64,000 nt of DNA, from NCBI GenBank assembly GCA_963798085.1, contig CAWCRS010000009.1, positions 233,889-297,888 on the forward strand. Reading direction: 5' to 3'. Origin of the DNA: an uncultured Gemmatimonadales bacterium (GTDB lineage: Bacteria; Gemmatimonadota; Gemmatimonadetes; Longimicrobiales; RSA9). This document shows, in pieces, positions 49 to 63,964 of the stretch. A program made the translations under genes and the position numbers. The notes beneath the pieces are model-generated. The model had not been told where the DNA came from. It was given only the letters and a program-made list of their open reading frames with translations, and did no database searches. Each line of letters starts with the position of its first letter. The stretch's first letter is position 1.

Positions 49-64
49 ACAGTTCTCCAAGACA

Positions 65-10739: not shown

Positions 10740-10904
10740 GGAGAATCCAGCCTCGTCTGATGGAAGAATGTCAGCGCAAGATAAAGCCGGCATCCGATCC
10801 GCACAGCAGGCGAGGGACACAACGCCTCCTGCGTTGCACCACTGCCAGCTGCTAGTGCCCGGTTATCAATCCGCGCAACGGAAAAGGGCCGGGACCCAAC
10901 TCGT

Positions 10905-12520: not shown

Positions 12521-12542
12521 TCTGACCCCGCAGTCTCGTGTC

Positions 12543-12968: not shown

Positions 12969-13027
12969 TCCAGGCTCCCGTCGCTCAGGGTCTCAGCAAA
13001 CCCGTATTCAGCAATCGGCCGGCCGCT

Positions 13028-13987: not shown

Positions 13988-14604
13988 CGTCGCGTACTCC
14001 AGGAAAAAAGAACGGCCGCGGGCTTCAGAATATCTGGCCCACGGCCGCTGGGTTCGGAGAACCGACCGCCCCCTGAATGGGCGGCCTCAGCCGTCGGCCC
14101 CAGGGGCGCCGCATCATGGCGCCCAGGCTCGAACAACAGCAGCTGCGACGGCAATCGTGCATCACGTTTTTCGGTCCCCGCCAGGTTTCACGAGCGGGCC
14201 CATCCGGCACCCGCTTCACAGCCCTTCAAACCCGCGCGCCGCGATTCCGGTTCCAGACCTTCGCCAGTGTCGGCAACACATCCTGCCGCCGCGTCGCTCG
14301 CCGCAGCACGATCTCGCTCCCCGCGCGCGTCCGCTGATCGAGTTCGCTGGCCTCTGCACGTCGACAGGGTCAGCCGTACGGATTTGCTCACACCGGGGTC
14401 ACAGGGGGACTGAGGGGCGCAGTTCGGGGCTGCGGCTGGCCGTCCGCGAGGGGCTTGGTGAGGCAGTTCGATTTTCCGCATCCCCGGCAACCCGCCGGGA
14501 CGTGGAGCTGCAATTCGAGGTGATGTCGGCCGGCGCGGCGCCCGCTAACTCAACGTTACAACCGCCGCCCGGCCATCCCTCTGCTCTCCGGGTGGACGGA
14601 GAGG

Positions 14605-15247
14605 TCAGGCGGTCTTGCGCTCGAACGCGGCGGCTTTCACCTCGCTGCGCGACAGGCCCTTCTGCTTGCGCCACGCCATCTCGTCGGTGTAGGCGTCAGC
14701 GAAGAACTGCGCCACCTCGTCGGCCGGTGTCGCGATCATGGGGGCAGTGGGCCGCTCCCGCGTGAACCGCAGGTGCAGCGCGGCGGGTGTCAGTCCGGGT
14801 GCACGCACCTTCGTGCGTCCCGGATGCTCGTCCAGTCCGCCGCCCATGCGGGCATTCGTCACCGTGAAGCTGGTGCCGTCCTGGTAGCGGCAGCAGAATG
14901 TCGCAGAACACGCCCGCCTGCGGATGCTCGTAGACCACCGCGATCGCCGCCTCATCCTCTTTCACGAGAAAGTGCAGGGGCAGGTTCTTCATCTCGGGTA
15001 CGGTGAAGCTGCCCGCCGCCACGAAGCCTCGCCGCTGCAGGGATTCCACCGCCGACCTCGCCTCGGGCCTGGCGGGGGGGCCGCTGGCAGGATTCAGCGT
15101 GATCGCATCCGGCTGACTCGCCAGCGCCGCCTTGCCGATCGCATTCCCCGCCACCGCGACCACCAGCCTGTGGAACAGGTCCGGCCGCAGCTTGATGATG
15201 GCGTAGATGAGGCAGAGGATACCGATCCAGAGAAGATCGCGACTCAT
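14605..15247 (-). pseudogene. hypothetical membrane-anchored protein, frame broken near 14905
   Basis: MSRDLLWIGILCLIYAIIKL (N-terminal TM, ATG 15247) ...AVVYEHPQAGVF continues in another frame as ATFCCRYQDGTSFTVTNARMGGGLDEHPG...KAAAFERKTA (ORF 14605..14955). I recognise no family. Confidence 0.55.
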
Positions 15248-15410: not shown

Positions 15411-15485
15411 GCCAGCCCGACTCCCAGGGTCGTTCCCAGCAACCAGCCCGAGCCCCAGCCCAAGCGACGCCGTTGCAGTCCGCCT
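15411..15485. repeat. GC-rich intergenic repeat family A copy
   Basis: The sequence gccagcccgactcccagggtcgttcccagcaaccagcccgagccccagcccaagcgacgccgttgcag contains the CAACCAGCCC / GAGCCCCAGCCC / GCCGTTGCA modules shared with 10905-11020 and 25088-25308. Confidence 0.6.
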
Positions 15486-25074: not shown

Positions 25075-25087
25075 CCGTGACCCGACT

Positions 25088-25308
25088 GCGTTGCTGGTTG
25101 CTCGTTGCCGGGGCTGGTTGCCCGGGAACGAATTGAACGGATCCGGAGGCGTTGCTGGGGCTGGGGCTCGGGCTGGGGCTGGGGATTGCATCGTGCGCTT
25201 CGAACACGTGGTTAGGTTACCGTCCGGGCCCCAGAAGCGCGGGTTGATCTGATGAATCCCTTCCCGGGCAACCAGCCCCAGCAACCAGCAACCAGCAACC
25301 AGCAACGC
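25088..25308. repeat. inverted-repeat-bounded GC-rich element (family A) filling the hutU-hutF spacer
   Basis: The left arm gcgttgctggttgctcgttgccggggctggttgcccgggaa (25088-25128) matches the reverse complement of the right arm ttcccgggcaaccagccccagcaaccagcaaccagcaaccagcaacgc (25261-25308). Internally there is a (GCTGGG)n run at 25153-25185, and a (GCAACCA)n run lies in the right arm. Confidence 0.8.
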
Positions 25309-34957: not shown

Positions 34958-35175
34958 GCTGTCCGATTCCGGGACGGATACCGCCTGCGGCGAACGCACG
35001 GCCGCCTGCCCGGGGTTGCTTCCAATATGCCAAGATCAATGCACACAACGGCTTGACATTGCAGTCGCGGACGGCACGGCCCGTGCCCGAGGGGAAGCCA
35101 CCGTGAGCAGGTTCGCGCGCGCCGTGCTGCGGCCGGCCCAGCCATTGGGCCGGGACCCGAGCTTCCGAGGAAATC

Positions 35176-37686: not shown

Positions 37687-40102
37687 ATGAGTCTGTCCAT
37701 GGACCTGCGCGTGGCGCTGCGCGGGCGTGCGTCGAGACCCGGCCCTTTCCCTGATCGCGGTGCTGGTGCTGGGGCTGGGCATCGGACTCACCGCGGCGAT
37801 GTTCAGCGTGGTGCGCAGCCTGGCGCTGCGCGGTCTGCCGGTGCCGGAAGGCCAGCGCATCGTCGACATCGAGCGGCGGCCGCACGGCGCGACCGGCGAA
37901 GGCTGGGGCGTACAGCCACGCGACTGGGTGGCGTGGCAGGAGCAGCAGCACACGCTGGAAGGCCTTGCCATCTATTCAACGAACACGGTGGCCGTGCGCG
38001 TGGACCGCGGCGCGTGGCGTTATCCGGCCGCGCAGGTGAGCGCCAATGCGTTCGAGCTGTTGCGCGTGCACGCGGCGCTGGGACGCACCTTCCGCACGGG
38101 CGATGATGCGGAAGGCGCGGATCCCGTGGTCGTGCTGGGTCACGATCTGTGGCGCGACCGCTTCGACTCCGATCCCGGCGCGGTGGGCCGCACCCTCTTC
38201 GTCGACGGCGTGGCGCACGTCGTGATTGGCGTGATGCCCGCCGGCTTCCGCTTCCCTTCCAGCGAAGATCTGTGGCTGCCGTTCGTGATTCCGGCCAGCG
38301 CGGTGACGTCCACGAGCTTCCCCAGCTTTGGCGTGTTCGCGCGGCTGGCGCCCGGCGTTTCGCGCCGTCAGGCGAGCGCTGATTTCGCGGTGATCGCGGC
38401 GCGGCTGGAAGCGCAGTACCCGGCGACGAACCACAACATGGGTGTCGCCATCAAGTCCTTCACGGCTCGCGCCATGGGTGAAGCCGCAATCGCGCAGATG
38501 CTGGTGATCCTGGGCGCCGTCGGCCTGGTCCTGCTGATCGCGTGCGCGAACGTGGCCAACCTGCAGCTGGTGCGCGCGATTCATCGCATGCGCGACCTCT
38601 CCGTGCGCGCATCACTGGGCGCCACCCGCGGCCGGCTCATGGCGCAGGCGCTCACGGAGTCGACCGTGCTGGCGCTGCTGGGCGCCGCGCTGGGCGTGCT
38701 GGTGGCGCTGGCCGCCACCGGCGGTCTGCGCCACTGGCTCACGAGCCGCCTGCCCTACTGGGCCGTGTTCCGGCTGGATGGCATGACTCTGCTGTTCGTG
38801 ATGGCCGTGGCGCTCGGCGCCGGCCTGCTCGCGGGTGCGCTGCCTGCACTGAAGGCGGGGCGCGCCTCAATGCACGATGCGCTGCGCGATGAGGCGAGAG
38901 GCTCGACCGGATTCCACTCTGGTCGCGCCATGCAGACGCTGGTCGTGCTCGAGATCGCGCTCTCGCTGGCACTCATGGTTGCGACCGGACTCATGCTGCA
39001 GGCAGTGCGTCGCGTGCGTGACGTGCGCGCCGGCTTCGCTGTGGATCGGACGGTGACCGCGCAGGTGACGGTGCCCGACGCGTGGGATGCGGCGGCCCGC
39101 CTGCGTTTCGCGGTGAGCCTGCAGACAGCCCTGACGCAGGCGCCGGGCGTGGCTACGGCGGTGCTTGCCTCGAATCTGCCGACCACGCGCGCGAACACGA
39201 CGCGCTACGCGCTCCAGGGCCAGGCGTACGACGAGGATCGCGCCATGCCGTACGCGCGGCTGGTGTCCGTGTCGCCGGGCTTCTTCGAGCAGTTTGGTGC
39301 GGCGGCGCGGGCCGGCCGGTTGTTCGACAGCCATGATGGCGCGGCGGGCGAGCCGGTCGCCATCATCAACCAGCGGCTGGCAAACACGCTGTTCGGGAGC
39401 GCCGATCCGCTGGGCCGGAGCATTCGCACGGGTGGCAGGGAGTCGCAGCAGCCGTGGCGTCGCATTGTGGGCGTGGTGCCCAACCTGTGGATCGCCGGAC
39501 TGGATGCGTTCCCGGACCGCAATCCGGCGGGCATCTACGTGCCGCTGGCACAGCAGCCGCCGGCCACGCTGGCGATCGCGCTGCAGGTACGGGGCGAGAC
39601 CGCGGCACCTGCGGCCGCGATTCGCGAGGCGGTGGCAGCGCTGGCGCCGGATGTGCCCGTGTACGACAGCAAGCTCATGGGCGAAGTGATCGAGGATAAC
39701 AGCTGGTTCTACGGCATGGCGGCCACACTCGTGGGCACGTGCGGCGTGGCCGCAATGCTGCTCGCCACCATCGGACTGTACGGCGTGATCGCGTTCACGG
39801 TGGGCCGGCGCACACGCGAGTTCGGCATCCGCATGGCGGTGGGTGCGCGGCCCGGCAGCATTGTGGCGCTGGTGCTGCGGCGAGGCTGGCTGCAGACGGG
39901 CATTGGCATGACACTGGGTTTCGCACTGGCGGCTGTGATTGGTGGCGGCCTGAGTACACTCGTGTTCGAGGTGAACCCGCACGATCCCGTGGTTTTTGCC
40001 ACATTCGGCCTGCTGCTGATCCTGGTGAACATGACCGCCACGCTGGCGCCTGCGCTGCGCGCCGCGCGCATCGATCCGCTGCAGGCGCTGCGCTCGGAAT
40101 AG
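37687..40102 (+). pseudogene. ADOP-type duplicated FtsX/MacB-like ABC permease, N-terminal frame break near 37725
   Basis: MSLSMDLRVALRG (ATG 37687) is in a different frame from VRRDPALSLIAVLVLGLGIGLTAAMFSV... (ORF 37727..40102). Together they recreate the family N-terminus DLRxALRxxRRxP. The remaining 791 aa are intact and end LQALRSE. Confidence 0.85.
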
Positions 40103-47839: not shown

Positions 47840-50258
47840 ATGAACGCGCTGCTGAAGGACCTGCGCTACGGTGCGCGCATGATCCGCAAGACGCCGGGCG
47901 CATCGCTCATCGCGGTCATTGCGCTGGCGCTGGGCATCGGCCTGACCACGCTGATGTTCAGCATCGTGTACGGCGCGCTCATCCGGGGCCTGCCCTTCGA
48001 GCACAGTGAACGCCTGGTCAACATCAACCGCGTGCGCAAGGATCGCGGCAACGTGGGCATTTTCGCGCCCGACTTCGCCGACTGGAGCGCACAGCAGCGC
48101 TCCTTCGAGGAGCTGGGCGCCTACGCCGGCACATCCATCACGCTGTCGAGCGGCGACGCGCCGCGGCGCGTGAGAGGCGCGTACGTGTCAGCCAGCCTGT
48201 TCCGCGTGCTGCGCGTGCATCCACTGATGGGTCGCGTGTTCACGGATGAAGACGACCGGTCCGGCTCACCTGACATGCTGATCATCGGCTACGACGTGTG
48301 GCAGAGTGATTTCGCCGGCGATCCCGGCATCATCGGCAGGTCCGTGCGCATGAACGGCATCGATGCCGTGATCGTCGGCGTCATGCCGCGCGGTTTCGGC
48401 TTCCCCGACACGCAGAGCGCGTGGGTGCCATTGCGCCTGGATCCGGCGCGGACGGAGCGGGGCAGGGGCATGTCGGTGGGCGTCGTGGGCCGGCTGCGGG
48501 CCGCGGTGAGCATGGCGCAGGCGACGGCGGACATGGAGGCCATCGCGCAGCGCCAGGCGAGCGCGTATCCGGTCACGAACCAGGACATCACCGTCAGACT
48601 GCAGACCTCGCAGCAGGCGAGACTGGGCCGGGACGAGCGCACCGTGCTCTACACGATGCTGGGCGCCGTGCTGTTCGTGCTGCTCATTGCCTGCGCCAAT
48701 GTGGCGAATCTGCTGATCGGCAGGGCCATGGTGCGCACGCGCGAGATCGGCGTGCGCACCGCGCTGGGCGCATTCGAAACTGCGTGTGATGAGCCAGTTC
48801 CTCACGGAATCGCTGGCGCTGGCCATCGCCGGTGCCGCCATCGGTGTGGTGATCGCGGCGGTCGGCATCCGCGCGTTCAATGGCGCGATTGCAGGCGTCA
48901 ATCCACCGTTCTGGCTGAAGATCGCGCTGGACACGCCGTCACTGCTCTGTGCCAGCGCCGCCACGGTGCTGGCCACGCTGGCGGCGGGCTCCATTCCCGC
49001 CGTGCAGGCGGCCACCGCGAACACGCACGACATCCTGAAGGATGAGTCGCGCGGCAGCTCGAGCTTCAGACTGGGCAACCTGAGCCGCGTCCTGGTGATG
49101 GCGGAAATGGCGCTGTCGGTCGGGCTGCTCGTAGGTGCCGGCCTCATGATCAAGAGCGTGGTCAAACTGGAAACAATCGATCTCGGCTTCGACGCAAGGC
49201 ACACGCTGAATGCACGCATGATCATGTCCGACACCATCTACAACGACCGCGAGCGCCGCCTGCGCCTGGCCACGGACCTGCTGACACGCGTGTCAGCAAT
49301 GCCGGGTGTCACCGCGGCCACGCTCACCACGTCCGCGCCGGGCATGGGTGGCGGCAGCAACCTCTTCGCACTGGAGGGCGTCACCTACGCCACCGATCGC
49401 GACTACCCGTCGGCGCCCGGCGCCACTATCGCGCCCGGGTTCTTCGCCACGCTGGGCTTCAGGGTCATCGGTGGCCGCGAATTCACGGCGGACGATCGCG
49501 ACGGCACGCTGCCCGTTGTGGTCGTCAATCAGTCGTTCGAGCGACGCTGGTTCCCGGGGCAGAGCGCGCTGGGCAAGCGCCTGCGCTTCGGCACCAACAT
49601 CGCCGGCAACCCGAACCCGTGGATGACGATCGTGGGCGTGGTCCCCGATCTCTATGTCACTGCCGTGGACGAACAGGTGCACGAAGGTCTGTACCGGCCG
49701 ATTGCGCAGGCGGGCCCGCGCGGCCTCACGGTGCTGGCACTGACGCGCGCGAAGCCGGCATCGCTCGTGAATGCGCTGCGCGGCGTCGTCGCCGATGTGG
49801 ATCCCAACCTGGCGCTGGATCAGCTGGGTTCGCTCGAGGAAGTCATCCAGCAGGAGAACTGGTACTACGCCGTGTTCGGTGCGCTGTTCGTCGCGTTCGG
49901 CGGCGCTGCTCTCTTCCTTGCCTCGATCGGGCTGTACGGCGTCATGTCGTTCGCCGTGAGCCGGCGGCGGCGCGAGATGGGTGTGCGCATGGCCGTGGGT
50001 GCGGACGCGCGCGACGTGGTGCGCCTGGTCCTGCGACAGGGCATGACACAAACCGCCATCGGCCTCATTGTGGGAACCGCTTTTGCGCTTTTCGTGTCGA
50101 AACTGCTGGCGGCCATCCTCTTCCAGGTGCAGCCCCGCGATCCGGTGATCTTCGCGTCCATCATTGCAGTACTGCTGCTCACCGCCGTGCTGGCGTGCTG
50201 GATCCCGGCCCTGCGCGCGGCCCGCGTGGACCCCCTGGAAGCTCTGCGCTACGAGTAG
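47840..50258 (+). pseudogene. ADOP-type duplicated FtsX/MacB-like ABC permease, frame broken near 48773
   Basis: ORF 47840..49045 (MNALLKDLRYGARMIRKTPGASLIAVIALALGIGLTT...ACANVANLLIGRAMVRTREIGVRTALGA) continues as SKLRVMSQFLTESLALAIAG... in ORF 48786..50258, ending LEALRYE. One extra base lies in gca t tcg. Confidence 0.85.
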
Positions 50259-50404: not shown

Positions 50405-51124
50405 ATGCTGAGCATCCGCGAGGTGTCACGCATCCTGGACGTGTCCGAGCGCACGGTGCAGCGCTGGATCCGCTCCGGTGATCTGCCCGCCAGCCGGCAG
50501 CGCGAACAGGCACTGATCAATCCCGTCGACCTGCTGGAGTGGGCTTCCGCGCGGGGCGTCGAGCTGTCGCCCGAGCTGAGCCAGCAGTGGGCCGTGCCCG
50601 AGCTGCCCTCGCTCTACGACGCCCTTGCGGCAGGCGGCATTCACACGGACGTACCGGGGCACAGCAAGGACACGGTGCTGCGCGCCGTGGCCCGGCGCCT
50701 GCCGCTGCGCAACGAGGACGAGAAGGAGTTCGTGCTGCAGGGCATGCTGGCCCGCGAAGCGCTCGGTTCCACTGCGATCGGCGGCGGTGTCGCCATTCCC
50801 CACGTGCGCAACCCCATCATCCTGCACGTCACCCGACCCGCCGTGATGCTATCGTTCCTGGAGAACGAGATCGATTTCGGCGCCCTGGATGGGCAGCCGG
50901 TCACGGTCCTGTTCACAGTCGTCAGTCCCACCGTGCGCCTGCACCTGCACCTGCTGTCGCGCCTCGGTTTCGTGCTGCACGATGCCGATGTGCGGCGGTT
51001 GCTGGGTGAGCGTGCCTCACCCGCCGCCGTGCTGGAACGCGTGCGCTGTGTGGAGGCGGCACTGCCCGGCCGGGATGGACTGGACGGCCACGTCTCCACC
51101 AACGGGCCGGCACAGGCGAGCTAA
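50405..51124 (+). CDS. HTH (excisionase/MerR-like) plus PTS EIIA(Ntr/fructose-type) domain protein
   Basis: ATG at 50405. MLSIREVSRILDVSERTVQRWIRSGDLPA (helix-turn-helix). EIIA_2 domain with STAIGGGVAIPHVR (phospho-His region) and VTVLFTVVSP. The stop TAA overlaps the next ATG as TAATG. Confidence 0.8.
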   Translation: MLSIREVSRILDVSERTVQRWIRSGDLPASRQREQALINPVDLLEWASARGVELSPELSQQWAVPELPSLYDALAAGGIHTDVPGHSKDTVLRAVARRLPLRNEDEKEFVLQGMLAREALGSTAIGGGVAIPHVRNPIILHVTRPAVMLSFLENEIDFGALDGQPVTVLFTVVSPTVRLHLHLLSRLGFVLHDADVRRLLGERASPAAVLERVRCVEAALPGRDGLDGHVSTNGPAQAS

Positions 51125-53094
51125 TGCTGCTGGCGGGCGCGTTCCTGGCACTCCTGCTGGGCGCGGTCCTCTCGCTGGTCTTCGGCCGTGATGCGCTGAC
51201 CCGCGCCCGACTGGGCGTGGCCGGCGCCGTCACTGCATCGCTGCTGGGTCTGGCCGCCTGCCTGCCCCCGCTCATCTCTGCCGGCGCCGTGGTCTACCAC
51301 GTTGCGTGGTCCGTGCCCCGTGGCTCCTTCACGCTGGTGCTCGATCCCCTGGCGGCGTTCTTCCTGCTGATCACGTTCCTGCTGACACCCCTGACCGCGT
51401 GGTACGGCGGGCGCTACCTGCGCGAGCAGGCGCACGCACCGCGCGCCACGTGGTTCTTCTGGAACCTGCTGATCGCGGCGATTGCGCTGGTGCTGCTGGC
51501 GGGTAACGCAGTGTTATTCCTGGTCGCATGGGAAGTGATGACCATCGCCTCCTTCTTCCTGGTCACGACGGAGGATGAGCGGCTCGAGGTGCGACGCGCG
51601 GGCTGGATCTACCTGATCGCCGCGCACATTGGCACGGCCTTCCTGATGGTGTTCTTCCTGCTGGCCGGCGGCAGCGCGGGTTCGCTCGATTTCGCGGCGC
51701 TCGGCGGCCACGCGCTGGTGGCGCCGGGTCTGCTGTTCGCACTGGCGCTGGTGGGTTTCGGCGCCAAGGCCGGACTCGTGCCCCTGCACGTGTGGCTGCC
51801 CGAAGCGCACCCGGCGGCGCCCAGTCACGTGTCCGCCCTGATGTCGGGTGTGCTGATTGCGACCGGCATGTACGGTATTCTGCGCGCCCTCGTGCTGGCC
51901 GGCCCGCTGGCGCCCGCATGGGGACCGGCCCTGATCGTGATCGGCGCACTGAGCGGACTGGTGGGCGTGGTGTTCGCGCTCGCGCAGGATGACATGAAGC
52001 GCGCTCTCGCATACTCGAGTGTCGAGAACATGGGGATTGCGCTGCTCGGCATCGGCGCGGGCGTGACCGGACTGAGCCGCGGCTCGCCCGTGCTGGCCGA
52101 GATCGGCTTCGGCGCTGCCCTGCTGCACGTGCTGAATCATGCGTGCTTCAAGGGACTGCTGTTCCTGGGCGCGGGCGCAGTGCGCCAGGCAACGGGCCAG
52201 ACGGGAATCGACCGGCTGGGTGGCCTGCTGCGACGCATGCCGCGCACCGGCCTCGCCTTTCTCGTGGGGTGCGCTGCCATCACGGGCCTGCCGCCGCTCA
52301 ATGGCTTCAGCAGCGAATTCCTCACGTTCCTCGCGGGACTGCGCATCGTCCGCGACATGCCGCCGGGCACGCGCTGGGCCGGCATCATCCTGGTGTGCGC
52401 GCTGGCCGCGGTGAGCGGCCTGGCCGTGGCACTGTTCGCGAAGTTGTTCGGCAGCGCATTCCTGGGCACGCCGCGCAGCGCGGCTGCGGCGCAGGCGCGC
52501 GAGGCGCACGTCGATCTGCGCACGCCGCTGCTCATCCTGGCAGCCGCGTGTGTGCTGCTGGGTCTCTTCCCGATCGTGGGCGTGCGTGCCGCGGCCGGTG
52601 CGGTGGGGCGGCTGGCGGGGCGGCCGCTCGATACCCGGACAGCCACACTGCTGCTCAGTACGCGGCTGCTGGGTAACGCCGTGTTGGGACTGAGCGCTCT
52701 GCTCGCACTGTGCGCCGGCCTGCGCTGGTCGCTCGTGCGACGACGCGAACGTCAGATCTCCGTCACCTGGGGCTGCGGTTATGCCGGGACGGTGGAACGC
52801 GCGCAGTACAGCGCATCATCGCTGGTGGCACCACTGGTCGCGTTCCTGGGCGGGGTGCTGCCCAGTGAGACGACAAGGGTGGCGCCGCCCCACGGCCTGT
52901 TCCCGGACACGGCAACGCTGCATGCGGGCGCCGCCGACGTATTCACGCAGCGCATGTACGGTCCCTCCTTCCAGTGGCTGAGCCGCTCCTTCCGCAGGCT
53001 GCGCATCGTGCAGCACGGCCGCCTGCACTGGTACCTGCTGTACGTGTTCCTCACGCTGCTGCTCATGCTGCTGATCGAGTTCGGCCAATGGTGA
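51124..53094 (+). CDS. HyfB-like (NuoL/Mrp antiporter-like) membrane subunit
   Basis: 656 aa, polytopic. Contains the proton-pump family motifs WEVMTIASFFLV, GFGAKAGLVPLHVWLPEAHPAAPSHVSALMSGV, LAYSSVENMG and HACFKGLLFLGAG. Confidence 0.9.
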   Translation: MLLAGAFLALLLGAVLSLVFGRDALTRARLGVAGAVTASLLGLAACLPPLISAGAVVYHVAWSVPRGSFTLVLDPLAAFFLLITFLLTPLTAWYGGRYLREQAHAPRATWFFWNLLIAAIALVLLAGNAVLFLVAWEVMTIASFFLVTTEDERLEVRRAGWIYLIAAHIGTAFLMVFFLLAGGSAGSLDFAALGGHALVAPGLLFALALVGFGAKAGLVPLHVWLPEAHPAAPSHVSALMSGVLIATGMYGILRALVLAGPLAPAWGPALIVIGALSGLVGVVFALAQDDMKRALAYSSVENMGIALLGIGAGVTGLSRGSPVLAEIGFGAALLHVLNHACFKGLLFLGAGAVRQATGQTGIDRLGGLLRRMPRTGLAFLVGCAAITGLPPLNGFSSEFLTFLAGLRIVRDMPPGTRWAGIILVCALAAVSGLAVALFAKLFGSAFLGTPRSAAAAQAREAHVDLRTPLLILAAACVLLGLFPIVGVRAAAGAVGRLAGRPLDTRTATLLLSTRLLGNAVLGLSALLALCAGLRWSLVRRRERQISVTWGCGYAGTVERAQYSASSLVAPLVAFLGGVLPSETTRVAPPHGLFPDTATLHAGAADVFTQRMYGPSFQWLSRSFRRLRIVQHGRLHWYLLYVFLTLLLMLLIEFGQW

Positions 53095-53998
53095 TCCGCA
53101 GCCTGCTGCCGCCGCTGCTGGGCCTGGCCGGCGCGCCCCTGCTGCTTGGCACGATCAACAAGCTGAAGGCCGCGTTCGTGGGCCGCACGGGCGCACCCCT
53201 GACACAGCCGTATCACGACCTGGCCCGCCTGCTGCGCAAAAATCTGGTGTACAGCAGCACGACGACGTGGCTGTTCCGCGCGCTTCCCGCAGTCTCGCTT
53301 GCGGCCGGCGTGGCTGTCGTGCTGCTCCTGCCGGCACTGGGACAGCGCCCGCCGTTTTCCTTCCCTGCCGACTTCCTGGTTCTGGCCGGTGCCCTGGCGC
53401 TGAGTCGCGCGAGCACGGTGTTAGCGGCGCTGGACACGGGATCGAGTTTCGAGGGCATGGGCGCCAGCCGCGAGCTGTTCATCGCCGCCCTGGCCGAGCC
53501 GGCGTTCTTCCTGGTGCTGCTGGTGCTGGTGACCCGGAGCGGGGAGCTGTCATGGCGGGCATGCTGGGTCCGGCGCTGACCGCGCACGGGTCAGGCGAGG
53601 CTGCCGCTCTGCTGCTGGCGGGCGGGGCCTTGCTGCTGCTGCTGCTCGCCGAGAACTCGCGTGTGCCGGTCGATGATCCGACGACGCATCTCGAGCTGAC
53701 CATGATTCACGAAGTCATGGTACTGGACCATGCCGGGCCCGATCTGGCGTTCATCCTGTACGGCGCCATGCTCAAGTTGTGGCTGTTCGCGGCGCTGCTG
53801 GTCGATCTCGCGCTTCCGGTGGGCGGCCTGCCCGCGCTGCCTGGCGCGCTGCTCTTCCTGGCGGGCATGGCGCTCAGCGCGCTGCTGGTGGCGCTGGTGG
53901 AGTCGAGCATGGCACGACTGCGGCTGGCGCGCGTGCCCCAGCTCCTGATCGCGGCATCCGTGCTGGCCGCGTTCTCCCTCCTGCTATCGGCGAGTTAG
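53088..53998 (+). pseudogene. HyfC/HycD-like (NuoH-like) membrane subunit, frame broken near 53551
   Basis: MVIRSLLPPLLGLAGAPLLLGTINKLKAAFVGRTGAPLTQPYHDLARLLRK... (ORF 52974..53579) continues as MAGMLGPALT...LLAENSRVPVDDPTTHLELTMIHEVMVLDHAGPDLA... (ORF 53267..53998). The junction GELS / MAGML needs a 1-nt shift. The ATG at 53088 overlaps the hyfB-like stop. Confidence 0.85.
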
Positions 53999-53999
53999 C

Positions 54000-54644
54000 A
54001 TGCAGCCGCTGCTGGAGACCCTGCTCATCGGCATTGTGCTGGTGAACCTGTCCATCCTGGGGTCGAGCCGGCTGGCCGGCTGCATCCGGCTGGTGGCGGT
54101 GCAGGGGGTGCTGGCCGGGCTGCTGCCCGCACTGCTGGGCACCACCGCGAGCGGCGCACGCGCCTTTGTCATGGTCGTGGTGGCCATGGGCGTGAAGGGG
54201 TTTCTGATGCCGTGGCTGCTGACGCGCGCGATCCGCGAAGCCAACGTACGCCGCGAGGTGGAGCCGTTCGTCGGTTTCAGCGCGTCCGTCGTGCTGGGAG
54301 CGCTGCTCACCGCCGCCGGGTTCGCGCTGGCCGCGCAGCTGCCACACCAGGGACCGGTGCAGGCGCCGCTCCTGGTGCCGGTGGCGTTCGCCACGCTGCT
54401 GAATGGCGCGCTGCTGATGGTGACACGGCGCAAGGCGATCATGCAGGTGCTGGGTTACCTGGTGCTGGAGAACGGCATCTTCCTGTTCGGCCAGAGCCTG
54501 GCGACGGAACTGCCCACACCCGTCGAGCTGGGCATCCTGCTCGACCTGCTGGTGGGCGTGTTCGTGATGGGCATCGCCATCTTCCGCATCAACCGCGAGT
54601 TCGACAGCACGGCCGTGCACCACCTGGCGGAGCTGAAGGACTGA
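54000..54644 (+). CDS. HyfE-like small membrane subunit
   Basis: 214 aa with 7 hydrophobic helices. Contains KGFLMPWLL and MQVLGYLVLENGIFLFG, typical of hydrogenase-4 component E homologues. Starts 2 nt after the previous stop. Confidence 0.8.
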   Translation: MQPLLETLLIGIVLVNLSILGSSRLAGCIRLVAVQGVLAGLLPALLGTTASGARAFVMVVVAMGVKGFLMPWLLTRAIREANVRREVEPFVGFSASVVLGALLTAAGFALAAQLPHQGPVQAPLLVPVAFATLLNGALLMVTRRKAIMQVLGYLVLENGIFLFGQSLATELPTPVELGILLDLLVGVFVMGIAIFRINREFDSTAVHHLAELKD

Positions 54645-56080
54645 TGCTGCCGGCGCTCGTGCTGCTTCCCGCGCTGGCGGGCGTGCTCGCGTTCTTCGCG
54701 CGCTCGGCCCGGGTGCGCGCCAACACGCTGCTGGGCGGTGCCCTCACGCACGCCCTGCTGACCGCCGTAGTGGCGTGGCGGCGGCCAGGACCAATGCTGG
54801 GCGGCTGGCTGCAGCTGGACGCGATCGGCCTGCTGTTCCTGGCCATTGTGAGCGTGTTGTTCCTCGTGGTGGTGCTGTACCTGGGCGTGCGGCGCACGCC
54901 GGACGAGCAAAGGCCGGAGCGCACGTTCGCGGCCTGCCTGCTGTGGTTCGCCGCATCCATGTCCCTGGTGACCATCAGCCATCATCTCGGTCTGCTCTGG
55001 GCGGCAGTGGAGGCGACGACACTCGCCAGTGCTCCGCTCATTTATCACCATCACAGCCGCCGCTCGCTCGAGGCGGCGTGGAAGTATCTGCTGATCTGCT
55101 CCGTCGGTATCGCGCTGGCACTCATGGGCACGTTCCTGCTGGCTCTGTCGGCGGCGGGCGGCGCCGTGCCGCACGGCGATCCGCTGCTGCTCCAGCGTCT
55201 GGTCGCCGCGGGACCTCGCCTGGATGGACCCGTGCTGCGCGCCGCGTTCGTGTTCCTGCTGGTCGGCTACGGCACCAAGATGGGACTCGCGCCGCTGCAC
55301 ACGTGGCTGCCCGATGCGCACAGTGAAGCGCCATCGCCGGCATCGGCGCTGCTCTCGGGGGCACTCCTGAATTGCGCGTTCCTGGCACTGCTGCGCGGCT
55401 GGCAGGTCGTGGCCGCCGCCGGCATGCAGGCGTTTGCCGCGCGCTGGCTCGTGCTCTTCGGCCTGCTCTCCATGGCGCTGGCCGGCGCGCTCATCCTGGG
55501 ACAGCGCGACTACAAGCGCATGCTCGCCTACTCGAGCGTCGAGCACATCGGCATCCTGGCGCTGGGTCTGGGAGCGGGGGGTGGCGCCGCGTTCGGCGTG
55601 CTGCTGCACGCGCTGAATCACTCGCTGGCCAAGGGCCTGCTGTTCCTGACCGCGGGCAACATCCTGCTTGCCTATGACACGAAAAGCAGCCGCAATGTGC
55701 GCGGTGTGCTGTCCGCCCGTCCGCTGACCGGCGTGCTCTGGCTGGCGGGATTCCTCGCCATCGCGGGCATGCCGCCATTCGGCCTGTTCCTCAGCGAATT
55801 CAGCATCCTGCGCGCACTGCTGGACCAGCAGCGCTTCCTCGTGGCCACGCTGTTCCTGGCACTGCTCGCCGTGGTGTTCGCGGGGCTGTCCTCCATCATG
55901 CTGCGCATGGCACAGGGAAAGCCTTCCGAGGTCGTGCCGGTGCCCGGCCGGGAGCGCTGGAACACGCTGTTATCACCCGCGCTGCTGGCCGTCGCCGTCC
56001 TGCTGCTTGGCCTGTACCTGCCACCCCAGCTCGACCGGCTGCTGCACGACGCCGCCGCCATCCTGCAGGCAGCGCCATGA
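54644..56080 (+). CDS. HyfF/HyfD-like (NuoM/N antiporter-like) membrane subunit
   Basis: The ATG at 54644 overlaps the previous TGA (ATGA-type overlap). Contains LLWAAVEATTLASAPLI, GYGTKMGLAPLHTWLPDAHSEAPSPASALLSG, LAYSSVEHIG and HSLAKGLLFLTAGN. Confidence 0.9.
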   Translation: MLPALVLLPALAGVLAFFARSARVRANTLLGGALTHALLTAVVAWRRPGPMLGGWLQLDAIGLLFLAIVSVLFLVVVLYLGVRRTPDEQRPERTFAACLLWFAASMSLVTISHHLGLLWAAVEATTLASAPLIYHHHSRRSLEAAWKYLLICSVGIALALMGTFLLALSAAGGAVPHGDPLLLQRLVAAGPRLDGPVLRAAFVFLLVGYGTKMGLAPLHTWLPDAHSEAPSPASALLSGALLNCAFLALLRGWQVVAAAGMQAFAARWLVLFGLLSMALAGALILGQRDYKRMLAYSSVEHIGILALGLGAGGGAAFGVLLHALNHSLAKGLLFLTAGNILLAYDTKSSRNVRGVLSARPLTGVLWLAGFLAIAGMPPFGLFLSEFSILRALLDQQRFLVATLFLALLAVVFAGLSSIMLRMAQGKPSEVVPVPGRERWNTLLSPALLAVAVLLLGLYLPPQLDRLLHDAAAILQAAP

Positions 56081-57611
56081 GCACCCGCCGCACGCTCCGG
56101 CTGCACAACGGTCAGGCGTTCGATACCGCCCTGCTGCCCGAACTGTCGATCGCCGAATTCACCGGGTTCGTGACCAGCCGTTGTCGCGAAGGCGAAAGGC
56201 TGGTGACGCTCTTCGGCTGGCAGGAACCCGATCCCGCGAACGACCGGGCGCGCACCCGGCTCGCCGTGGTGCTGGCCAGCGATCAGAGCGGACAGCTGGA
56301 AGTGCTGTGCTGCACGGTTGCAGGGCATCAGTACACATCGCTCACGCCCGACGTGGCCGCAGCCGCACGCTTCGAGCGCGAGATCCGCGAGCAGCTGGGC
56401 ATCGTGCCAGTGGACCACCCCTGGCTCAAACCACTGCGCAGCCAGCCACCGCTATATCCCGGTCTCCGGCCCCTGCACAATGCGGCGGTCGAGATCGGCG
56501 TCGACTATCCCTTCTTCCGCATGGAAGGCGAGGCAATACACGAGGTCGCGGTAGGCCCGGTGCACGCGGGCATCATCGAGCCCGGACACTTCCGCTTCCA
56601 GTGCTACGGCGAGCGCGTGTTCCACCTCGAGATAATGCTGGGTTATCAGCACCGCGGCATCGAGCGCGCACTGCTGGGCGGTCCGCAGCGCAATTCCGCC
56701 GTGCAGATCGAGGAGCTGGCCGGCGACACCACCGTGGGCCACAGCATGGCGTGGGCCCAGGCGCTGGAAGCGCTGGCCGCGTGCGACGTGCCCCTGCGCG
56801 CCCAGGCGCTGCGCGCGCTCGCGCTCGAACTCGAGCGCCTGGCCAACCACACCGGTGACATCGGCGCACTCGCCGGCAATGTCGCGTTCCTGCCCACGGC
56901 GGCCTACTGCGGGCGCATTCGCGGCAGTTTCCTCAACATGACGGCGCTGCTGTGCGGGAACCGTTTCGGTCGCGGCTTCATCCGGCCCGGCGGCGTCGCC
57001 TTCGATATCGATGGCGGAGATGTGCTGCAGCTGCAGGCTGCGCTCAATGCGGCGAGCCACGATCTGCACATTGCCGTCGAGCTGTTCTTCGAGACCGGAT
57101 CGGTCGTCGACCGGCTCGAAGGCACCGGACCGGTGACGCCCGAGCTGTGTCAGGAGCTGGGTGTCGTGGGTCCGGCCGCCCGCGCCTGCGGCATCGCCCG
57201 CGACGTGCGCCACGACCACGCCCACGGCATGTACCGCCTGGCGCACATTCCCACCGCCACCGTGGAAGGCGGTGACGTGTACGCGCGTGCCATGGTGCGC
57301 TGGCTGGAGATGCAGCGCTCGCTGGCATTCATTCGCGAGCTGCTCGCGGGCTTGCCACCCGGACCGTCCAGCGTGCCCATGCCGGGTCTGCTGCCCAATC
57401 TGGGCACCATTTCCCTTGTCGAAGCCTGGCGCGGTGAGATCGCGCACATCGCCATGACCAATGCACACGGCCGCTTTCTGCGCTACAAGATCACCGACCC
57501 CTCGTTTCACAACTGGCCGGCACTCGAAATCGCAATGCGCGGCCAGCAGATTCGGACTTTCCGCTCTGCAACAAGAGCTTCAATCTTTCCTATTCGGGGG
57601 CGGATCTTTGA
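56077..57611 (+). pseudogene. HyfG/HycE-like fused NuoC-NuoD large subunit lacking all four NiFe cysteine ligands, frame broken near 57552
   Basis: NuoD-type core VGPVHAGIIEPGHFRF...LGYQHRGIE. Where hydrogenases have R-x-C-G-x-C-x3-H, this protein has E-L-A-G-D-T-T-V-G-H. After GQQI the frame must shift by 1 nt to read SDFPLCNKSFNLSYSGADL-stop (TGA 57609-57611), which aligns with D.P....S.DPCxSCxDR with Cys replaced by Ser and Gly. The ATG overlaps the previous stop (ATGA). Confidence 0.85.
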
Positions 57612-57619
57612 ATGCGGAA

Positions 57620-57727
57620 TGCGTTGGAGTTGCTGAGGCTGGGGCTGGGGCTCGGGCTGGGGACGAATTGAAATGCGTTGCCTGGGGGCTGGTTGCTGGG
57701 GCTGGTTGCTCGGGAACGGCAGCAACG
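57620..57727. repeat. family A GC-rich repeat block (left boundary of the intra-operon spacer)
   Basis: The sequence gcgttggagttgctgaggctggggctggggctcgggctggggacgaattgaaatgcgttgcctgggggctggttgctggggctggttgctcgggaacggcagcaacgg shares its modules and the GAATTGAA linker with 25110-25185. Confidence 0.75.
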
Positions 57728-58337
57728 GATACAGCGTGCAGCTGCCCTGGTAGGGCTGGCACGGGGGACGGACTGCATGCGTTTGCGGCGGCTGGTTGCT
57801 CCACGGCATCAACGGAAACCGCCCGCACGGAGTTGTTCGGGATGCTGTCTGGGAATGGCGCGGCAGGCTGCCGCCGTCTACGCCATCGACGTTCGCACGA
57901 AGCGGCGACCAGAGCCATGCTGCCCATGGAAAGCACTGGATTGAGGCTCGACAGCAGCGGGTGGTCTTGCGACAGGCGCCGGGCCGCGGGGTGGGACCGG
58001 GGCGGAAATCGAGACGCGTCGCGGGCGAAGGGTGGGACAACATTGGCTTGCACTGCAGGGCCGTTGCCCGGGAGCACCCGGGAACATCGTGGAGGTGGCG
58101 GACGCGACCTGCGCACGCCTGCACCGAATTCTGTGTTAGTACGATGATCGAGGTTCAGGCCGTGGATCGGTGGCCCGCGCACGCCGGGCAGACCCTGAAC
58201 GCGTCGAGGGGGAACCGTTTGAGAAAGGTCGAACCGCGGCGCCGGTTTTCTTCCGTCGGGGCGCGACAGCGCGTGCGCGACACCCGCCTCACGGCAGCCG
58301 TGCGCAATCGTGCAGAGGGCGCGGGAGCCGCGCTGTT

Positions 58338-58462
58338 TCCCAGCCCCGGTCCCGAGGTCAGCCCCGGCCCCGGCGCCAGTGCCAGCCCCAGCCCGGGGCA
58401 GGCCGTCCAGTCCGTCTTGCCATACCCGGGCAACCAGCCCCGGCAACGAGTTCCAGCAACGA
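58338..58462. repeat. family A GC-rich repeat block, inverted (right boundary of the intra-operon spacer)
   Basis: ...cccagccccggtcccgaggtcagccccggccccggcgccagtgccagccccagcccgggg...cccgggcaaccagccccggcaacgagttccagcaacgac. Its reverse complement, gttgctggaactcgttgccggggctggttgcccggg, is nearly identical to 25091-25126. Confidence 0.75.
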
Positions 58463-58472
58463 CGCCGGCTCC

Positions 58473-59240
58473 ATGTTAGAGATTCTGCGGGCTCGTCTCG
58501 ACCAGGGGCATCGCACGATCCGGTTTCCGCCCGAGGATGCCGGGCTGCCGGAGCGCTACCGGGGCAGGCCGGTGATCGGCGAGGGGCCGTGCCCGGACGG
58601 CTGCGACGAGTGCCGTGAGGCCTGTCCGACCGAAGCGATCGTGATCGAAGGCGGAGGCGTTCAGCTCGACCTGGGTCGCTGCGTCTTCTGCGGCGCATGC
58701 GAGGCCGCATGTCCGGCAGGGGTCATCACGTTTGGCCAGGACTATCGCATGGCAACACGCACGCGCCAGGATCTCGTCGTGCGCGCAGACGCCGAATACC
58801 CGCTCGCAATGGAACTCGACAAGCATATGCGTCGCCTCTTCGGACGCTCACTCAAGCTGCGACAGGTCTCGGCGGGCGGCTCCGGGGCCGAAGAAGCAGA
58901 CTGCAACGTGCTGAACACCGTCGTATTCGACCTCGCTCGCTTCGGCATCCAGTTCGTCGCCTCGCCTCGCCACGCTGACGGACTGCTGGTCACCGGACCC
59001 GTCTCGCGCAATATGCGCCGCGCGCTCGAGCTGACCTGGGAAGCGCTGCCTTCACCCCGCCTGGTCATCGCGGTGGGCGCCTCCGCGATCAGTGGCGGTC
59101 CCTGGCGCGGCCAGCCCGCTGTCCTCGACGGCGTCAGCGCCATTCTGCCTGTCGATCTCTACATTCCGGGTTTTCCGCCACATCCTCTTACGATCCTCAA
59201 TGGGCTTCTTCGGCTTCTCTCTCACCGCGGAGTGCGCTGA
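58473..59240 (+). CDS. fusion of a 2x[4Fe-4S] ferredoxin-like domain with a NuoB/HycG-like small subunit that lacks all four cluster cysteines
   Basis: ATG at 58473 inside ORF 58170..59240. The N-terminal part has CPDGCDECREACP and CVFCGACEAACP. The C-terminal part has FGIQFVASPRHADGLLVTGPVSRNM, AVGASAISGG and PVDLYIPGFPPHP. Aligned by eye to HycG (GSCNGCE, GACGNSGG, IPGCPP), the four Cys positions read S, A, S and F. Confidence 0.85.
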   Translation: MLEILRARLDQGHRTIRFPPEDAGLPERYRGRPVIGEGPCPDGCDECREACPTEAIVIEGGGVQLDLGRCVFCGACEAACPAGVITFGQDYRMATRTRQDLVVRADAEYPLAMELDKHMRRLFGRSLKLRQVSAGGSGAEEADCNVLNTVVFDLARFGIQFVASPRHADGLLVTGPVSRNMRRALELTWEALPSPRLVIAVGASAISGGPWRGQPAVLDGVSAILPVDLYIPGFPPHPLTILNGLLRLLSHRGVR

Positions 59241-59796: not shown

Positions 59797-60615
59797 ATGC
59801 CGCTCTTCATGGACCGTCACGATATTCGCAATGCAACGGCCGAGGCTGTTGCCGCGGCGCACCAGCGGGATCTCATCGTCCAGGCGAGCCATGCGTGCAA
59901 AGCTCTCACCTACTGGTTCGATGAGGACCGCGGGACGGCTTTCTGCCTCATTGAAGGACCTACCGAAGCAGCCGTTCGTGCCATGCACCGCGAAGCGCAC
60001 GGCCTCATTCCCAACGTCGTCGTGGAAGTCGATCCCGCGGCTGTTGCCGGCTTCCTGGGACGCGTCACTGATCCCAATGACGCAGTGGCGAACCCGATCC
60101 GCGAGGCAGGGTTCCGGGCACTGATGTTCACCGACATGGTGAACTCCACACTGATCACGAACACACTCGGCGACGACAGGGCACAATCGGTTCTGGCGAA
60201 GCACAATGAGATTGTGCGGAGGACGCTGCTGAGCCACGGCGGGCGCGAAATCGACCGGGCCGGTGACGGCTTCCTGATATCCTTTTCGTCCGCCGCGCAA
60301 GCCGTGGCGTGTGCCGTGTCAATGCAGCGTGCGTTCCAGGACTACAATGCCGATGCCGCCCGTCCCGCCGACATCCAGGTGCGCATTGCGCTGGGGGCGG
60401 GCGAACCGATCGCCGACGGAGAATCGCTGTTTGGTTCCGTGGTCAACCTGACCGCGCGCATCTGCGCTCACGCTGGCGCGGGCGAGATCCTGGCTACACG
60501 CGTCGTCCGCGATCTCTGCACCGGCAAGCCGTTCACCTTCCTGCCAGCCGGCGCTCTGGAACTCAAGGGTTTCGCCGATCCGATCGAAGTGCACCGCGTC
60601 GACTGGACCGCCTGA
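59797..60615 (+). CDS. DUF4242-like N-terminal domain fused to a class III adenylate/guanylate cyclase catalytic domain
   Basis: N-terminal MPLFMDRHDI...AHQRDL..Q...CKALTYWFDEDRGTAFCLIEGPTEAAVRAMHREAHGL (SCO4226-like). Cyclase domain RALMFTDMVNST...REIDRAGDGFLISFSSAAQAVACAVSMQ...IRIALGAGEP...GSVVNLTARI...LKGF.DPIEVHRV. Confidence 0.8.
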   Translation: MPLFMDRHDIRNATAEAVAAAHQRDLIVQASHACKALTYWFDEDRGTAFCLIEGPTEAAVRAMHREAHGLIPNVVVEVDPAAVAGFLGRVTDPNDAVANPIREAGFRALMFTDMVNSTLITNTLGDDRAQSVLAKHNEIVRRTLLSHGGREIDRAGDGFLISFSSAAQAVACAVSMQRAFQDYNADAARPADIQVRIALGAGEPIADGESLFGSVVNLTARICAHAGAGEILATRVVRDLCTGKPFTFLPAGALELKGFADPIEVHRVDWTA

Positions 60616-62958: not shown

Positions 62959-63964
62959 TCAGCGGGTGCCGTACCCGAACGATTCGATGAGCCGCCTGGC
63001 CACGTCGCCGCGCAGGAAGTCCAGGTACGCGCGCGCCGCGGGATGGTCGCGGCCGGGCAGGAGCAGGACCGCGTCCTGCGCAAGGGGCTCATGGTACTCG
63101 GCGGGCACCAGCCAGTACGTGTGCTCCGGCTCGTGGATTACCTGCGACCACGCGACGAAGCCCAGCTCCGCCGCGCCCGACTTCACGAACTGCAGCGTCT
63201 GCGTGAGGCTCTCGCCGCGCACGAGGCGGGCGGCAATCGCATCGTACAGACCCAGAATGCCGCAGCACCTGCATGGCCGCCACACCGTAGGGCGCCGTCT
63301 CCGGGTTGGCGATGGCAATGTGGCGAAACCGCCCGCTGCGCAGATCCTCGCCGGCCGCGCGGACGGAATCGAGCGACGGGCCGTACAGCGCGAGTCGCCC
63401 GACCGCGTACGTGAAACGCGAGCCCGCCACCGCGTAGCCATCACGCTCCAGCAGCGCGGGCCGCTCGCTGTCCGCCGACAGGAACACGTCGAAGGGGGCA
63501 CCGTTGCGCGCCTGCGCGTAGAGCAGCCCGCTCGAGCCCACGCTGCTCACCACACGCTGGCCCGATCCCGCCCTGAACTTCGCCGCCAGCTGCTCCTGCA
63601 CCACTGCGAAATTCGCGGCCACCGCCACTCTCACCTCTGCGGCCACCGCCACCCTCACCTCTGCGGCCACCGCCACCCTCACCTCTGACGACTCGCGCGC
63701 TCCCGCGTATGCGTGAGCGCGCGTACCCGGACCGTCGCGCCGTCCGGCGCCCGATGTGCCGAGCCCGAGCAGCAGCAGGAACACGCTGTGCCGCGCAGCA
63801 GCGCGCCCGCAGCGGAAGGTCGCGCGGACAGAGGTGGACACGGCTGCAGCGACACGGGCCGGCGCGCAGGCGGAGAGCCCAGCCGCGCGCGCCCGGGCGC
63901 GGCCTGACAGGCTGCCAGGCGGCCGGCGGCGGCGCCACGCGCGGATTCCTGCTGCCGCCATCAC
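62959..63964 (-). pseudogene. modA: molybdate-binding periplasmic protein, frame broken near 63262, with an in-frame 3 x 24-bp tandem repeat near the signal peptide
   Basis: VAVAANFAVVQEQLAAKFRAGSGQRVVSSVGSSGLLYAQARNGAPFDVFLSAD...IANPETAPYGVAAMQVL (ORF 63089..63964) continues as LGLYDAIAARLVRGESLTQTLQFVKSGAAELGFVAWSQV... (ORF 62959..63501). The true start is uncertain. Confidence 0.8.
63615..63686. repeat. perfect-frame tandem triplication of a 24-bp unit inside modA
   Basis: GCGGCCACCGCCAC(T/C)CTCACCTCT occurs three times (63615-63638, 63639-63662, 63663-63686). On the coding strand it encodes (EVRVAVAA)x3. Confidence 0.85.

Follow-up and report, generated by a model that had tools for sequence, protein, structure and literature searches.

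The window analysed here, a 64,000-nucleotide (nt) stretch of DNA from an uncultured Gemmatimonadales bacterium (contig CAWCRS010000009.1), carries on its + strand an operon (positions 50405–59240) that begins with a gene for a regulator made of a helix-turn-helix (HTH) and an EIIA domain and continues with six structural genes of the energy-converting-hydrogenase-related (Ehr) type. Reading frames were mapped from the third-position G+C signal together with a list of open reading frames (ORFs); since the window has about 68% G+C, this signal marks the frames clearly. Every gene assignment is backed by matches to Pfam and NCBIfam profiles. These bear out the gene order given in an earlier note, which had been made by eye on the same DNA: an HTH-EIIA regulator, HyfB-, HyfC-, HyfE-, HyfF- and HyfG-like subunits, and a small subunit. 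The same note had start and stop codons overlapping throughout. Neighbouring genes do touch or overlap, apart from a single junction, that between the large- and small-subunit genes, which are separated by 861 nt without codon periodicity.

The regulator gene (50405–51124) encodes an N-terminal DNA-binding HTH_17 domain of the excisionase/MerR-like type (PF12728, 5e-14) joined to a PtsN-like PTS_EIIA_2 domain (PF00359, 1.8e-22; PtsN in NCBIfam, 5e-16). Four membrane subunits follow. EhrA (51124–53094; 656 amino acids) is a HyfB-like protein of the antiporter type, with matches to NCBIfam hydrogenase 4 subunit B (1.6e-168) and to Proton_antipo_M (4e-51). EhrB (53088–53998) is HyfC/HycD/NuoH-like, and its sequence, joined across a frame break, matches Pfam NADHdh (3.9e-26). 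EhrC (54000–54644; 214 amino acids) is HyfE-like (NCBIfam hydrogenase 4 membrane subunit, 4.9e-22, and a weak match to Pfam Oxidored_q2), and EhrD (54644–56080; 478 amino acids) is a HyfF-like, again antiporter-type, subunit (NCBIfam hydrogenase 4 subunit F, 2.9e-115). The last two genes encode the cytoplasmic proteins. EhrL (56077–57611; 511 amino acids after correction of a frame break) is a NuoC::NuoD/HycE-like large subunit that contains the Complex1_30kDa and Complex1_49kDa domains and matches the solved chain 7z0s_E (E = 9e-52). EhrS (58473–59240) is a NuoI/HycF-like::NuoB/HycG-like fusion, recognised by Fer4 and Oxidored_q6 in Pfam and by the HycF/NuoI and NuoB profiles in NCBIfam.

As far as sequence can tell, the locus is with high confidence an Ehr-type operon under an HTH-EIIA regulator. 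We file it there because its subunits are those of the published Ehr set and because no solved structure lies closer than formate hydrogenlyase (FHL), complex I, Mbh and Mbs. Published Ehr complexes consist of the same six subunits, and fusions of NuoC to NuoD and of NuoI to NuoB are both typical of them (PMC6349859 Supplementary Note 4); the HyfB-, NuoH-, HyfE- and HyfF-like proteins, the NuoC::NuoD protein lacking the NiFe cysteines and the NuoI::NuoB protein are all encoded in the window. The Geobacter sulfurreducens subunits EhrA–D, L and S correspond to GSU0739–0745 (EhrA, EhrC, EhrL and EhrS are described in PMC7894505); Geobacter has two HyfB-like genes where the window has one, and a second HyfB-like gene is also present in many of the relatives described below. 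Ehr has been noted in Margulisbacteria, Saganbacteria, Elusimicrobia, Nitrospira and bacteria of the candidate phyla radiation, and several publications state that its function is unknown. The window's operon differs from the published Ehr examples in its attached HTH-EIIA regulator and, together with its clade, in the absence of all four cluster ligands from the NuoB-like domain, which has Ser, Glu, Ser and Phe in their place. A hyc-like locus of Mycobacterium tuberculosis, Rv0081–Rv0087, has also been called EHR; it is transcribed together with Rv0081, its regulator, and is described as a complex of undetermined function (PMC6728331), and, compared by description only, it differs from the window's operon in having another regulator.

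For comparison, a scan with one genome per species returned at least 379 related stretches, the best 80 of which were fetched. These come from Gemmatimonadota, Eisenbacteria, Hydrogenedentota, Elusimicrobiota and Planctomycetota, and the closest among them are two metagenome-assembled genomes (MAGs) of Longimicrobiales, with 63% identity. The Elusimicrobia MAGs in this set are the kind of groundwater genomes from which Ehr has been reported. The gene order (regulator)-B-C-E-F-G-HI is conserved in the relatives. Metagenome searches gave thousands of related proteins as a minimum; 120 clusters of the large subunit and the 120 closest clusters of the small subunit were analysed.

Ligand columns were read from phmmer alignments to solved chains of FHL, Mbh and complex I. 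In the alignment with HycE (7z0s_E), the RVCGICGFAH column holds ELAGDTTVGH in EhrL, as the earlier note had read it in place of RxCGxCxxxH: the two cysteines are replaced by A215 (56719–56721) and T218 (56728–56730) and the arginine by E213, and the histidine is retained. At the C-terminus, once one base is inserted at about 57552, NLSYSGADL falls under DPCYSCTDR, with S505 (57588–57590) and G508 (57597–57599) at the cysteine positions. The correction thus restores no CxxC, in agreement with the cysteine-free end that had been claimed. The C-terminal end of EhrL coincides with the mature, protease-cut end of HycE, so that no protease step would be needed. All four NiFe ligands are absent from 80 of 80 genome relatives as well; among the 120 metagenome clusters, 104 carry the AGDT motif and only 2 keep a cysteine at the first NiFe ligand position. 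From these columns the complex is predicted to be unable to hold a NiFe centre. The view that it is Ehr-like and neither a NiFe hydrogenase nor a formate hydrogenlyase therefore stands, on the missing ligands here and in the 80 relatives and on the subunit set.

The former NiFe pocket is nevertheless strongly conserved. In 81 sequences, 118 of the 511 EhrL positions are invariant, both former NiFe motifs among them, and the patterns E-x-[IL]-A-G-D-T-x-[IV]-G-H and SDFPLCNKSFNLSY-x-G-x-DL are near-invariant; most of the 120 metagenome clusters have these motifs too. Pocket residues that do not vary across phyla include E212, D217, H222 and the stretch C498-N-K-S-F-N-L-S-Y-x-G-H-D-L. The window's own EhrL departs from this at two places: S507 and A509 (within 57588–57602, just past the frame break of the large-subunit gene) are unique among the 81 sequences, the 80 relatives having Ala or Cys at the first and His, Arg or Phe at the second.

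The small subunit has two parts. Residues 1–107 of EhrS form a 2x[4Fe-4S] domain that matches the HycF, HyfH and NuoI profiles (7z0s_F, E = 9e-14). All eight of its cysteines are present, as the earlier note had described for the N-terminal ferredoxin domain, and the first motif is spaced C-x3-C-x2-C-x3-C-P, as it is in relatives of several phyla. The further idea that this domain had been gained has to be given up. Its match to HycF, HyfH and NuoI indicates a fusion of two ancestral neighbouring subunits rather than an acquisition, the fusion is present in 79 of the 79 related loci that include the small-subunit gene, and it is a published hallmark of Ehr (PMC6349859). Residues of about 120–250 form the NuoB/HycG-like domain, with a solved-structure match to 7z0s (E = 7e-24). 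Aligned to HycG (7z0s_G) and MbhJ (6cfw_J), it has GGSGAEE for GGCNGCE, GAS for GAC and PGFPP for PGCPP. The ligand columns of the proximal cluster are thus occupied by S137 (58881–58883), E140 (58890–58892), S204 (59082–59084) and F234 (59172–59174). All four cysteines are replaced, as claimed; the second position had been read as Ala by eye, in a register off by one. With these residues, EhrS of this clade is predicted to be unable to hold the proximal [4Fe-4S] cluster. Since the proximal ligands are gone, the two remaining ferredoxin-type clusters would be electrically isolated from the former active-site pocket.

The two losses differ in their distribution. Judged from the alignments, the loss of the NiFe ligands appears family-wide, and among the genome relatives the loss of the NuoB cluster appears specific to the window's clade. 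All four NuoB cysteines are kept in 75 of 79 genome relatives, and they are lost only in two loci with the window's own S-E-S-F pattern (L001 and L004) and in a sister locus with S-D-E-F (L003). The S-E-S-F pattern also occurs in 12 metagenome protein clusters (65–75% identity) and in two JGI contigs (L086/L087); because it recurs in independent short-read assemblies, we take it to be real and stable. Within the S-E-S-F clade the ratio of nonsynonymous to synonymous substitution rates (dN/dS) is 0.15–0.24 for all six structural genes. It is 0.07–0.11 in the cluster-less NuoB-like domain and 0.16–0.27 in the ferredoxin domain, the former being the more constrained of the two. The clade is under strong purifying selection. 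The earlier note had called the loss of both metal sites an unusual combination, and this holds among the 79 genome loci, where the NuoB loss is confined to a small clade. In metagenomes, however, incomplete NuoB sets are common: of the 120 closest small-subunit clusters, 72 are without the full set of ligands, with several replacement patterns.

The operon contains two frame breaks, at about 53552 in the HyfC-like gene and at about 57552 in the large-subunit gene, where one base is missing; the second had been recognised before and the first overlooked. The joined HyfC-like protein is colinear with its orthologue in L001, with no gap at the break. The corrected large subunit is matched through residue 511 by 80 of 80 related genome loci, and the extra base is present in 13 of 13 metagenome contigs that contain the 32-nt context of the break. 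Four other genes of the window are split, namely two MacB/FtsX permeases (65–2738 on the − strand and 47840–50258 on the + strand), a Lon protease (18609–21168, −) and a ModA-like binding protein (62962–63796, −). Given the number of other broken genes in the window and the intact frames of all relatives, both breaks in the operon are most likely assembly errors; breaks this dense suggest an assembly prone to indels, probably one from long reads, more than they suggest pseudogenes. Programmed frameshifting was considered and rejected, as the relatives are in frame at both break sites. It might still be argued that the operon is decaying, with real frame shifts, a mobile insert that has split ehrL from ehrS, and ligands lost through decay; the two breaks, the 861-nt insert unique to this genome and the odd S507 and A509 in the C-terminal motif all lend themselves to this account. 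We regard it as very unlikely. Breaks that hit unrelated and housekeeping genes such as those for Lon, ModA and the permeases fit assembly error; singleton changes of the window's copy at positions that are otherwise invariant number only 2 in EhrL and 0 in EhrS, no excess over the relatives; and S-E-S-F is common to intact, selected orthologues.

The iron–sulphur ligands of the NuoI-like domain also vary across the family. In the 2x[4Fe-4S] ferredoxin fold, each of two cysteine sets (C1–C3 with C8, and C4 with C5–C7) binds one cluster. All eight cysteines are kept in the window's clade, in Hydrogenedentota and in Planctomycetota; many Gemmatimonadales keep only the C1–C3 + C8 set, Elusimicrobia only the C4 + C5–C7 set, and several Gemmatimonadaceae neither. 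Because each set binds one cluster, Gemmatimonadales and Elusimicrobia would retain different clusters, and the chain would have a gap in at least one of them. In the Gemmatimonadota locus L003 (2982–3728) no complete Fe-S ligand set is left, the ferredoxin positions reading AWWSCALL and the NuoB positions SDEF, yet its small subunit is fused, in frame and well aligned despite the lost ligands. We classified 61 full-length fused small subunits, representatives at 50% identity, by their ligand sets. All three sets are present in 22 of them, one ferredoxin set (C4 + C5–C7) plus NuoB in 19, NuoB only in 8 and one ferredoxin set without NuoB in 5; 4 have both ferredoxin sets without NuoB and 3 have none, and a few in these last two classes may be sequencing artefacts. 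At least one set is therefore missing in 39 of the 61. This pattern suggests that the Fe-S chain is dispensable family-wide and that its ligand sets have been lost in mosaic fashion. We found neither the loss of the proximal ligands nor the mosaic Fe-S loss described for Ehr in the literature searched, whose coverage leaves aside the founding papers of 2005 and 2013 (Coppi; Marreiros).

The ion path, as opposed to the electron path, is retained in the membrane subunits. In EhrA, transmembrane helix (TM) 5 E137, TM7 K215, TM11 K343 and TM12 E398 are each kept in at least 95% of 51 relatives. The same level of conservation, at least 95% of relatives, is found for the acidic coupling loop AENSRVPVDDPTTHLELTMIHEV of the NuoH-like EhrB, for the membrane glutamate E157 of EhrC (in GYLVLENG) and for E123, K212 and K330 of EhrD. 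An alignment of EhrD to MbhH, MrpA and NuoM shows that the TM5 Glu and TM7 Lys are retained; its TM12 Glu is present in the window's protein and variable among the relatives.

Solved complexes resemble the predicted assembly in different parts. The best solved-structure match of the large subunit and of both EhrS domains is E. coli FHL/hydrogenase 4 (7Z0S), and the membrane subunits match the HyfB, HyfC, HyfE and HyfF profiles. The window's operon differs from that system in lacking the NiFe and proximal-cluster ligands, in having the counterparts of HyfH and HyfI fused, and in having no HyfA, HyfD, HyfJ, formate dehydrogenase or hyp genes nearby; within the 64-kb window there is neither a hyp gene nor one for formate dehydrogenase or another hydrogenase. 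Set against group 4 [NiFe] hydrogenases in general, it lacks the RxCGxCxxxH and DPCxxCxxH/R motifs and the proximal four-cysteine set. Pyrococcus Mbh and Mbx/Mbs (6CFW, 6U8Y) share the homologous cap and antiporter-type subunits, but keep the proximal cluster, have their two-cluster subunit as a protein of its own, contain far more Mrp-type subunits and use ferredoxin as a known electron donor. The antiporter-type subunits also align with MrpA and MrpD of the Mrp antiporter (6Z16, 7QRU), with the key Glu and Lys kept; a cap or channel subunit like NuoB, NuoD or NuoH is lacking in Mrp, and the window's operon has no MrpB, C, E, F or G. With the Q-module of complex I (Nqo4/6/9; 4HEA) it shares NuoB-, NuoC-, NuoD-, NuoH- and NuoI-like folds and a NuoL/M/N-like arm. 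It differs in lacking the N2 ligands, the quinone-binding His and Tyr and NuoE/F/G. The quinone ligands H38 and Y87 of Thermus thermophilus Nqo4 align to I167 and G216 of EhrL, and the NADH-oxidising N-module (NuoE/F/G) is absent from the operon and the window and is not conserved beside the relatives.

A published parallel in gene order is Hyq of Azorhizobium caulinodans, encoded by hyqRBCEFGI, whose large subunit has no CxxC motif and whose deletion alters H2 evolution in vivo (PMC3357923). Both operons run regulator-B-C-E-F-G-I and encode a NuoC::NuoD large subunit without either CxxC. One may accordingly ask whether Ehr is a non-NiFe "endo-hydrogenase" of the kind proposed for Hyq, turning over H2 at a cysteine-less site. 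The shared gene order, the CxxC-less large subunit and the deletion phenotype speak for it, and we still consider it extremely unlikely. HyqI is small, unfused and has four NuoB cysteines, while EhrS combines its NuoB-like part with a NuoI-like domain and lacks the ligands of the proximal cluster; and the window has no hyp genes. To our knowledge, no chemistry activates H2 without a metal centre. Hyq also differs in the conserved-cysteine pattern of HyqG; it is found in alphaproteobacterial diazotrophs, where it is genetically linked to H2 recycling (PMC3357923).

The regulator suggests which signals might act on the operon. Its EIIA domain contains the phosphorylatable-histidine motif GVAIPH. 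An HTH-EIIA homologue lies upstream on the same strand in 38 of the 51 related loci with enough flank, and G[IV]AIPH is present in all matched upstream homologues. In L001, the closest relative examined, an HTH_17-EIIA paralogue and then a ClC/CBS ion-transporter gene lie directly 3' of the Ehr operon (12372–15129), and L004 has a matching regulator match at the same downstream position (12433–13041); the pair is absent from the corresponding position in the window. The pair in L001 gives a weak hint that such regulators control ion-homeostasis genes.

Taken as a working model, the complex would assemble like FHL or Mbh: four subunits would form a membrane arm that translocates ions, and two proteins would cap it on the cytoplasmic side. 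Electron transfer to the pocket would no longer drive it. Instead, it would act as a redox-independent cation or proton translocator of the Mrp or complex-I membrane-arm type, in which the conserved cap would be both a structural plug and a gate on the NuoH-like channel that senses a ligand or a state. Its expression would be set by the PtsN-like regulator, reading the phosphorylation state of the nitrogen phosphotransferase system (PTS-Ntr) and hence carbon, nitrogen or potassium status. A relative that lacks the NiFe site and still pumps ions has a precedent in Mbs. Redox-independent ion translocation with a cut electron wire is the mechanism that we find best, at a probability of roughly 0.4, and it is drawn from missing parts and patterns of conservation. 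Several considerations lead to it: without the proximal cluster, the remaining clusters would be too far from the pocket for tunnelling; the Fe-S sets are lost in mosaic while the residues of the pocket and of the ion path stay conserved; the clade is under purifying selection; and no redox partner gene is conserved near the operon. Of the two kinds of input that the earlier note had allowed, a non-redox one agrees with the mosaic loss, and a ferredoxin-linked one suffers from clusters that would be cut off from the pocket.

Several points weigh against redox-independent translocation. The distances behind the presumed isolation of the clusters are those of FHL and of complex I. Within the clade, all eight ferredoxin cysteines are strictly conserved, which hints that the clusters may serve redox sensing, structure or another path for electrons. 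A pocket that hardly varies resembles a site of catalysis or ligand binding more than a passive plug. In EhrD, the central TM8 Lys (residue of about 243) is replaced by Asn. About one third of the representatives keep the complete three-cluster wire, so redox chemistry may have driven the ancestral complex, with this clade as a derived exception. Finally, the related Hyq connects a cysteine-less large subunit with H2 turnover in vivo (PMC3357923).

Some of these points would be accommodated by a redox-driven pump, the view favoured in published Ehr papers. Electrons from reduced ferredoxin or from a loosely bound dehydrogenase would enter through the NuoI-like clusters and reduce a substrate (a quinone, a sulphur compound or another), which would power the movement of ions in the manner of Mbx/Mbs or complex I. 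The eight ferredoxin cysteines of the window, the 22 of 61 representatives with all three ligand sets and the strongly conserved pocket are consistent with such a pump, and so is the higher abundance of Geobacter Ehr subunits on formate (PMC7894505). We hold it to be unlikely for the window's operon. All proximal ligands are gone in its clade, where their replacements are conserved, the chain is broken at differing places across the family, and L003 is without any Fe-S ligand set. The complex I quinone ligands are absent, and ORF clustering across the 80 loci revealed no partner oxidoreductase accompanying the operon. Apart from the core genes and the regulator, that clustering recovered nothing but neighbours restricted to single lineages: TetR and ArsR genes, the GlpA-like, DUF1667 and MsrB genes of Elusimicrobia, and the ClC gene of the closest relatives.

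The direction of coupling could also be reversed. An H+ or Na+ gradient might drive a non-redox reaction or binding event in the former NiFe pocket, such as hydration or dehydration or the handling of a metal or ligand, by analogy with the CO2-hydrating NDH-1/CupA and DAB systems. Such chemistry would explain a pocket whose residues are invariant across phyla up to the C-terminus of mature hydrogenase, together with Fe-S ligand sets that are dispensable and ion-path residues that are retained. The idea is purely inferential, no candidate substrate was found for it, and no accessory gene suggests one. The window's EhrL also has Ser and Ala where most relatives have Ala or Cys and His. We rate gradient-driven chemistry as quite unlikely.

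Membership in Ehr is known ground, and the part worth pursuing is the missing NuoB cluster, along with the mosaic of Fe-S loss across the family. With more doubt than confidence, we propose that Ehr, most clearly in this clade, may have given up electron transfer, its Fe-S wire lost piecemeal while the pocket, the NuoH loop and the antiporter residues are kept by selection, and that a regulator of the PTS-Ntr type may control it. If this were true, Ehr would be the first known complex-I-type machine whose cap drives, gates or is driven by ion translocation through non-redox chemistry or ligand binding. Ehr is widespread and has been described as linking hydrogenases to complex I, a missing link between the two, and no function has been assigned to it since 2005. 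Should the Fe-S chain prove dispensable and the pocket and ion path conserved, the question would move from the redox couple to the non-redox job of a complex-I-like cap. The S-E-S-F clade, the relatives with one ferredoxin cluster and the relative without any Fe-S ligands are natural variants that offer ready-made experiments. Annotations such as "Ni,Fe-hydrogenase III" or "NuoB/NuoC" overstate hydrogen and NADH metabolism in Gemmatimonadota and in other soil and groundwater phyla.

The 861-nt spacer between the large- and small-subunit genes (57612–58472, assigned to no strand) appears to be a genome-specific, repeat-bounded element. The corresponding gap in the relatives is only 0–324 nt, and about 14–25 nt in the closest ones, so the spacer is best explained as an insertion specific to this genome. 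A Pfam search of all its ORFs and an Rfam search of the spacer gave no match, and a scan for promoter and terminator consensus sequences found none. Its left end carries a G-rich arm of GCTGGGG/GCTGGTT units (57629–57721), which belong to a dispersed intergenic repeat, and its right end a C-rich arm (58340–58460) that is the reverse complement of these units; the two arms form the inverted repeats I1 and I2. In the predicted fold they pair in a long terminal stem (z = -3.3). Further copies of the repeat lie at no fewer than four intergenic sites of the window (25–55, 10897–11014, 15430–15483 and 25087–25299), among the copies being a compact palindromic one of about 230 nt after a urocanase-like gene.

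Just downstream of the operon (59797–60615, + strand) lies a gene whose product joins an SCO4226-like "nickel-responsive" domain to an adenylate/guanylate cyclase domain; it is curious that a nickel-linked signalling protein should adjoin a hydrogenase relative that is predicted to have lost the ability to bind nickel. Elsewhere in the 64 kb there are four large MacB_PCD/FtsX permease paralogues (65–2738, 35164–37533, 37736–40102 and 47840–50258), a pattern that genomes of Acidobacteriota and Gemmatimonadota typically show. The ModA-like gene contains, in its N-terminal region, three copies of a 24-nt unit (63615–63687, 97% matches), which encode EVRVAVAA three times.

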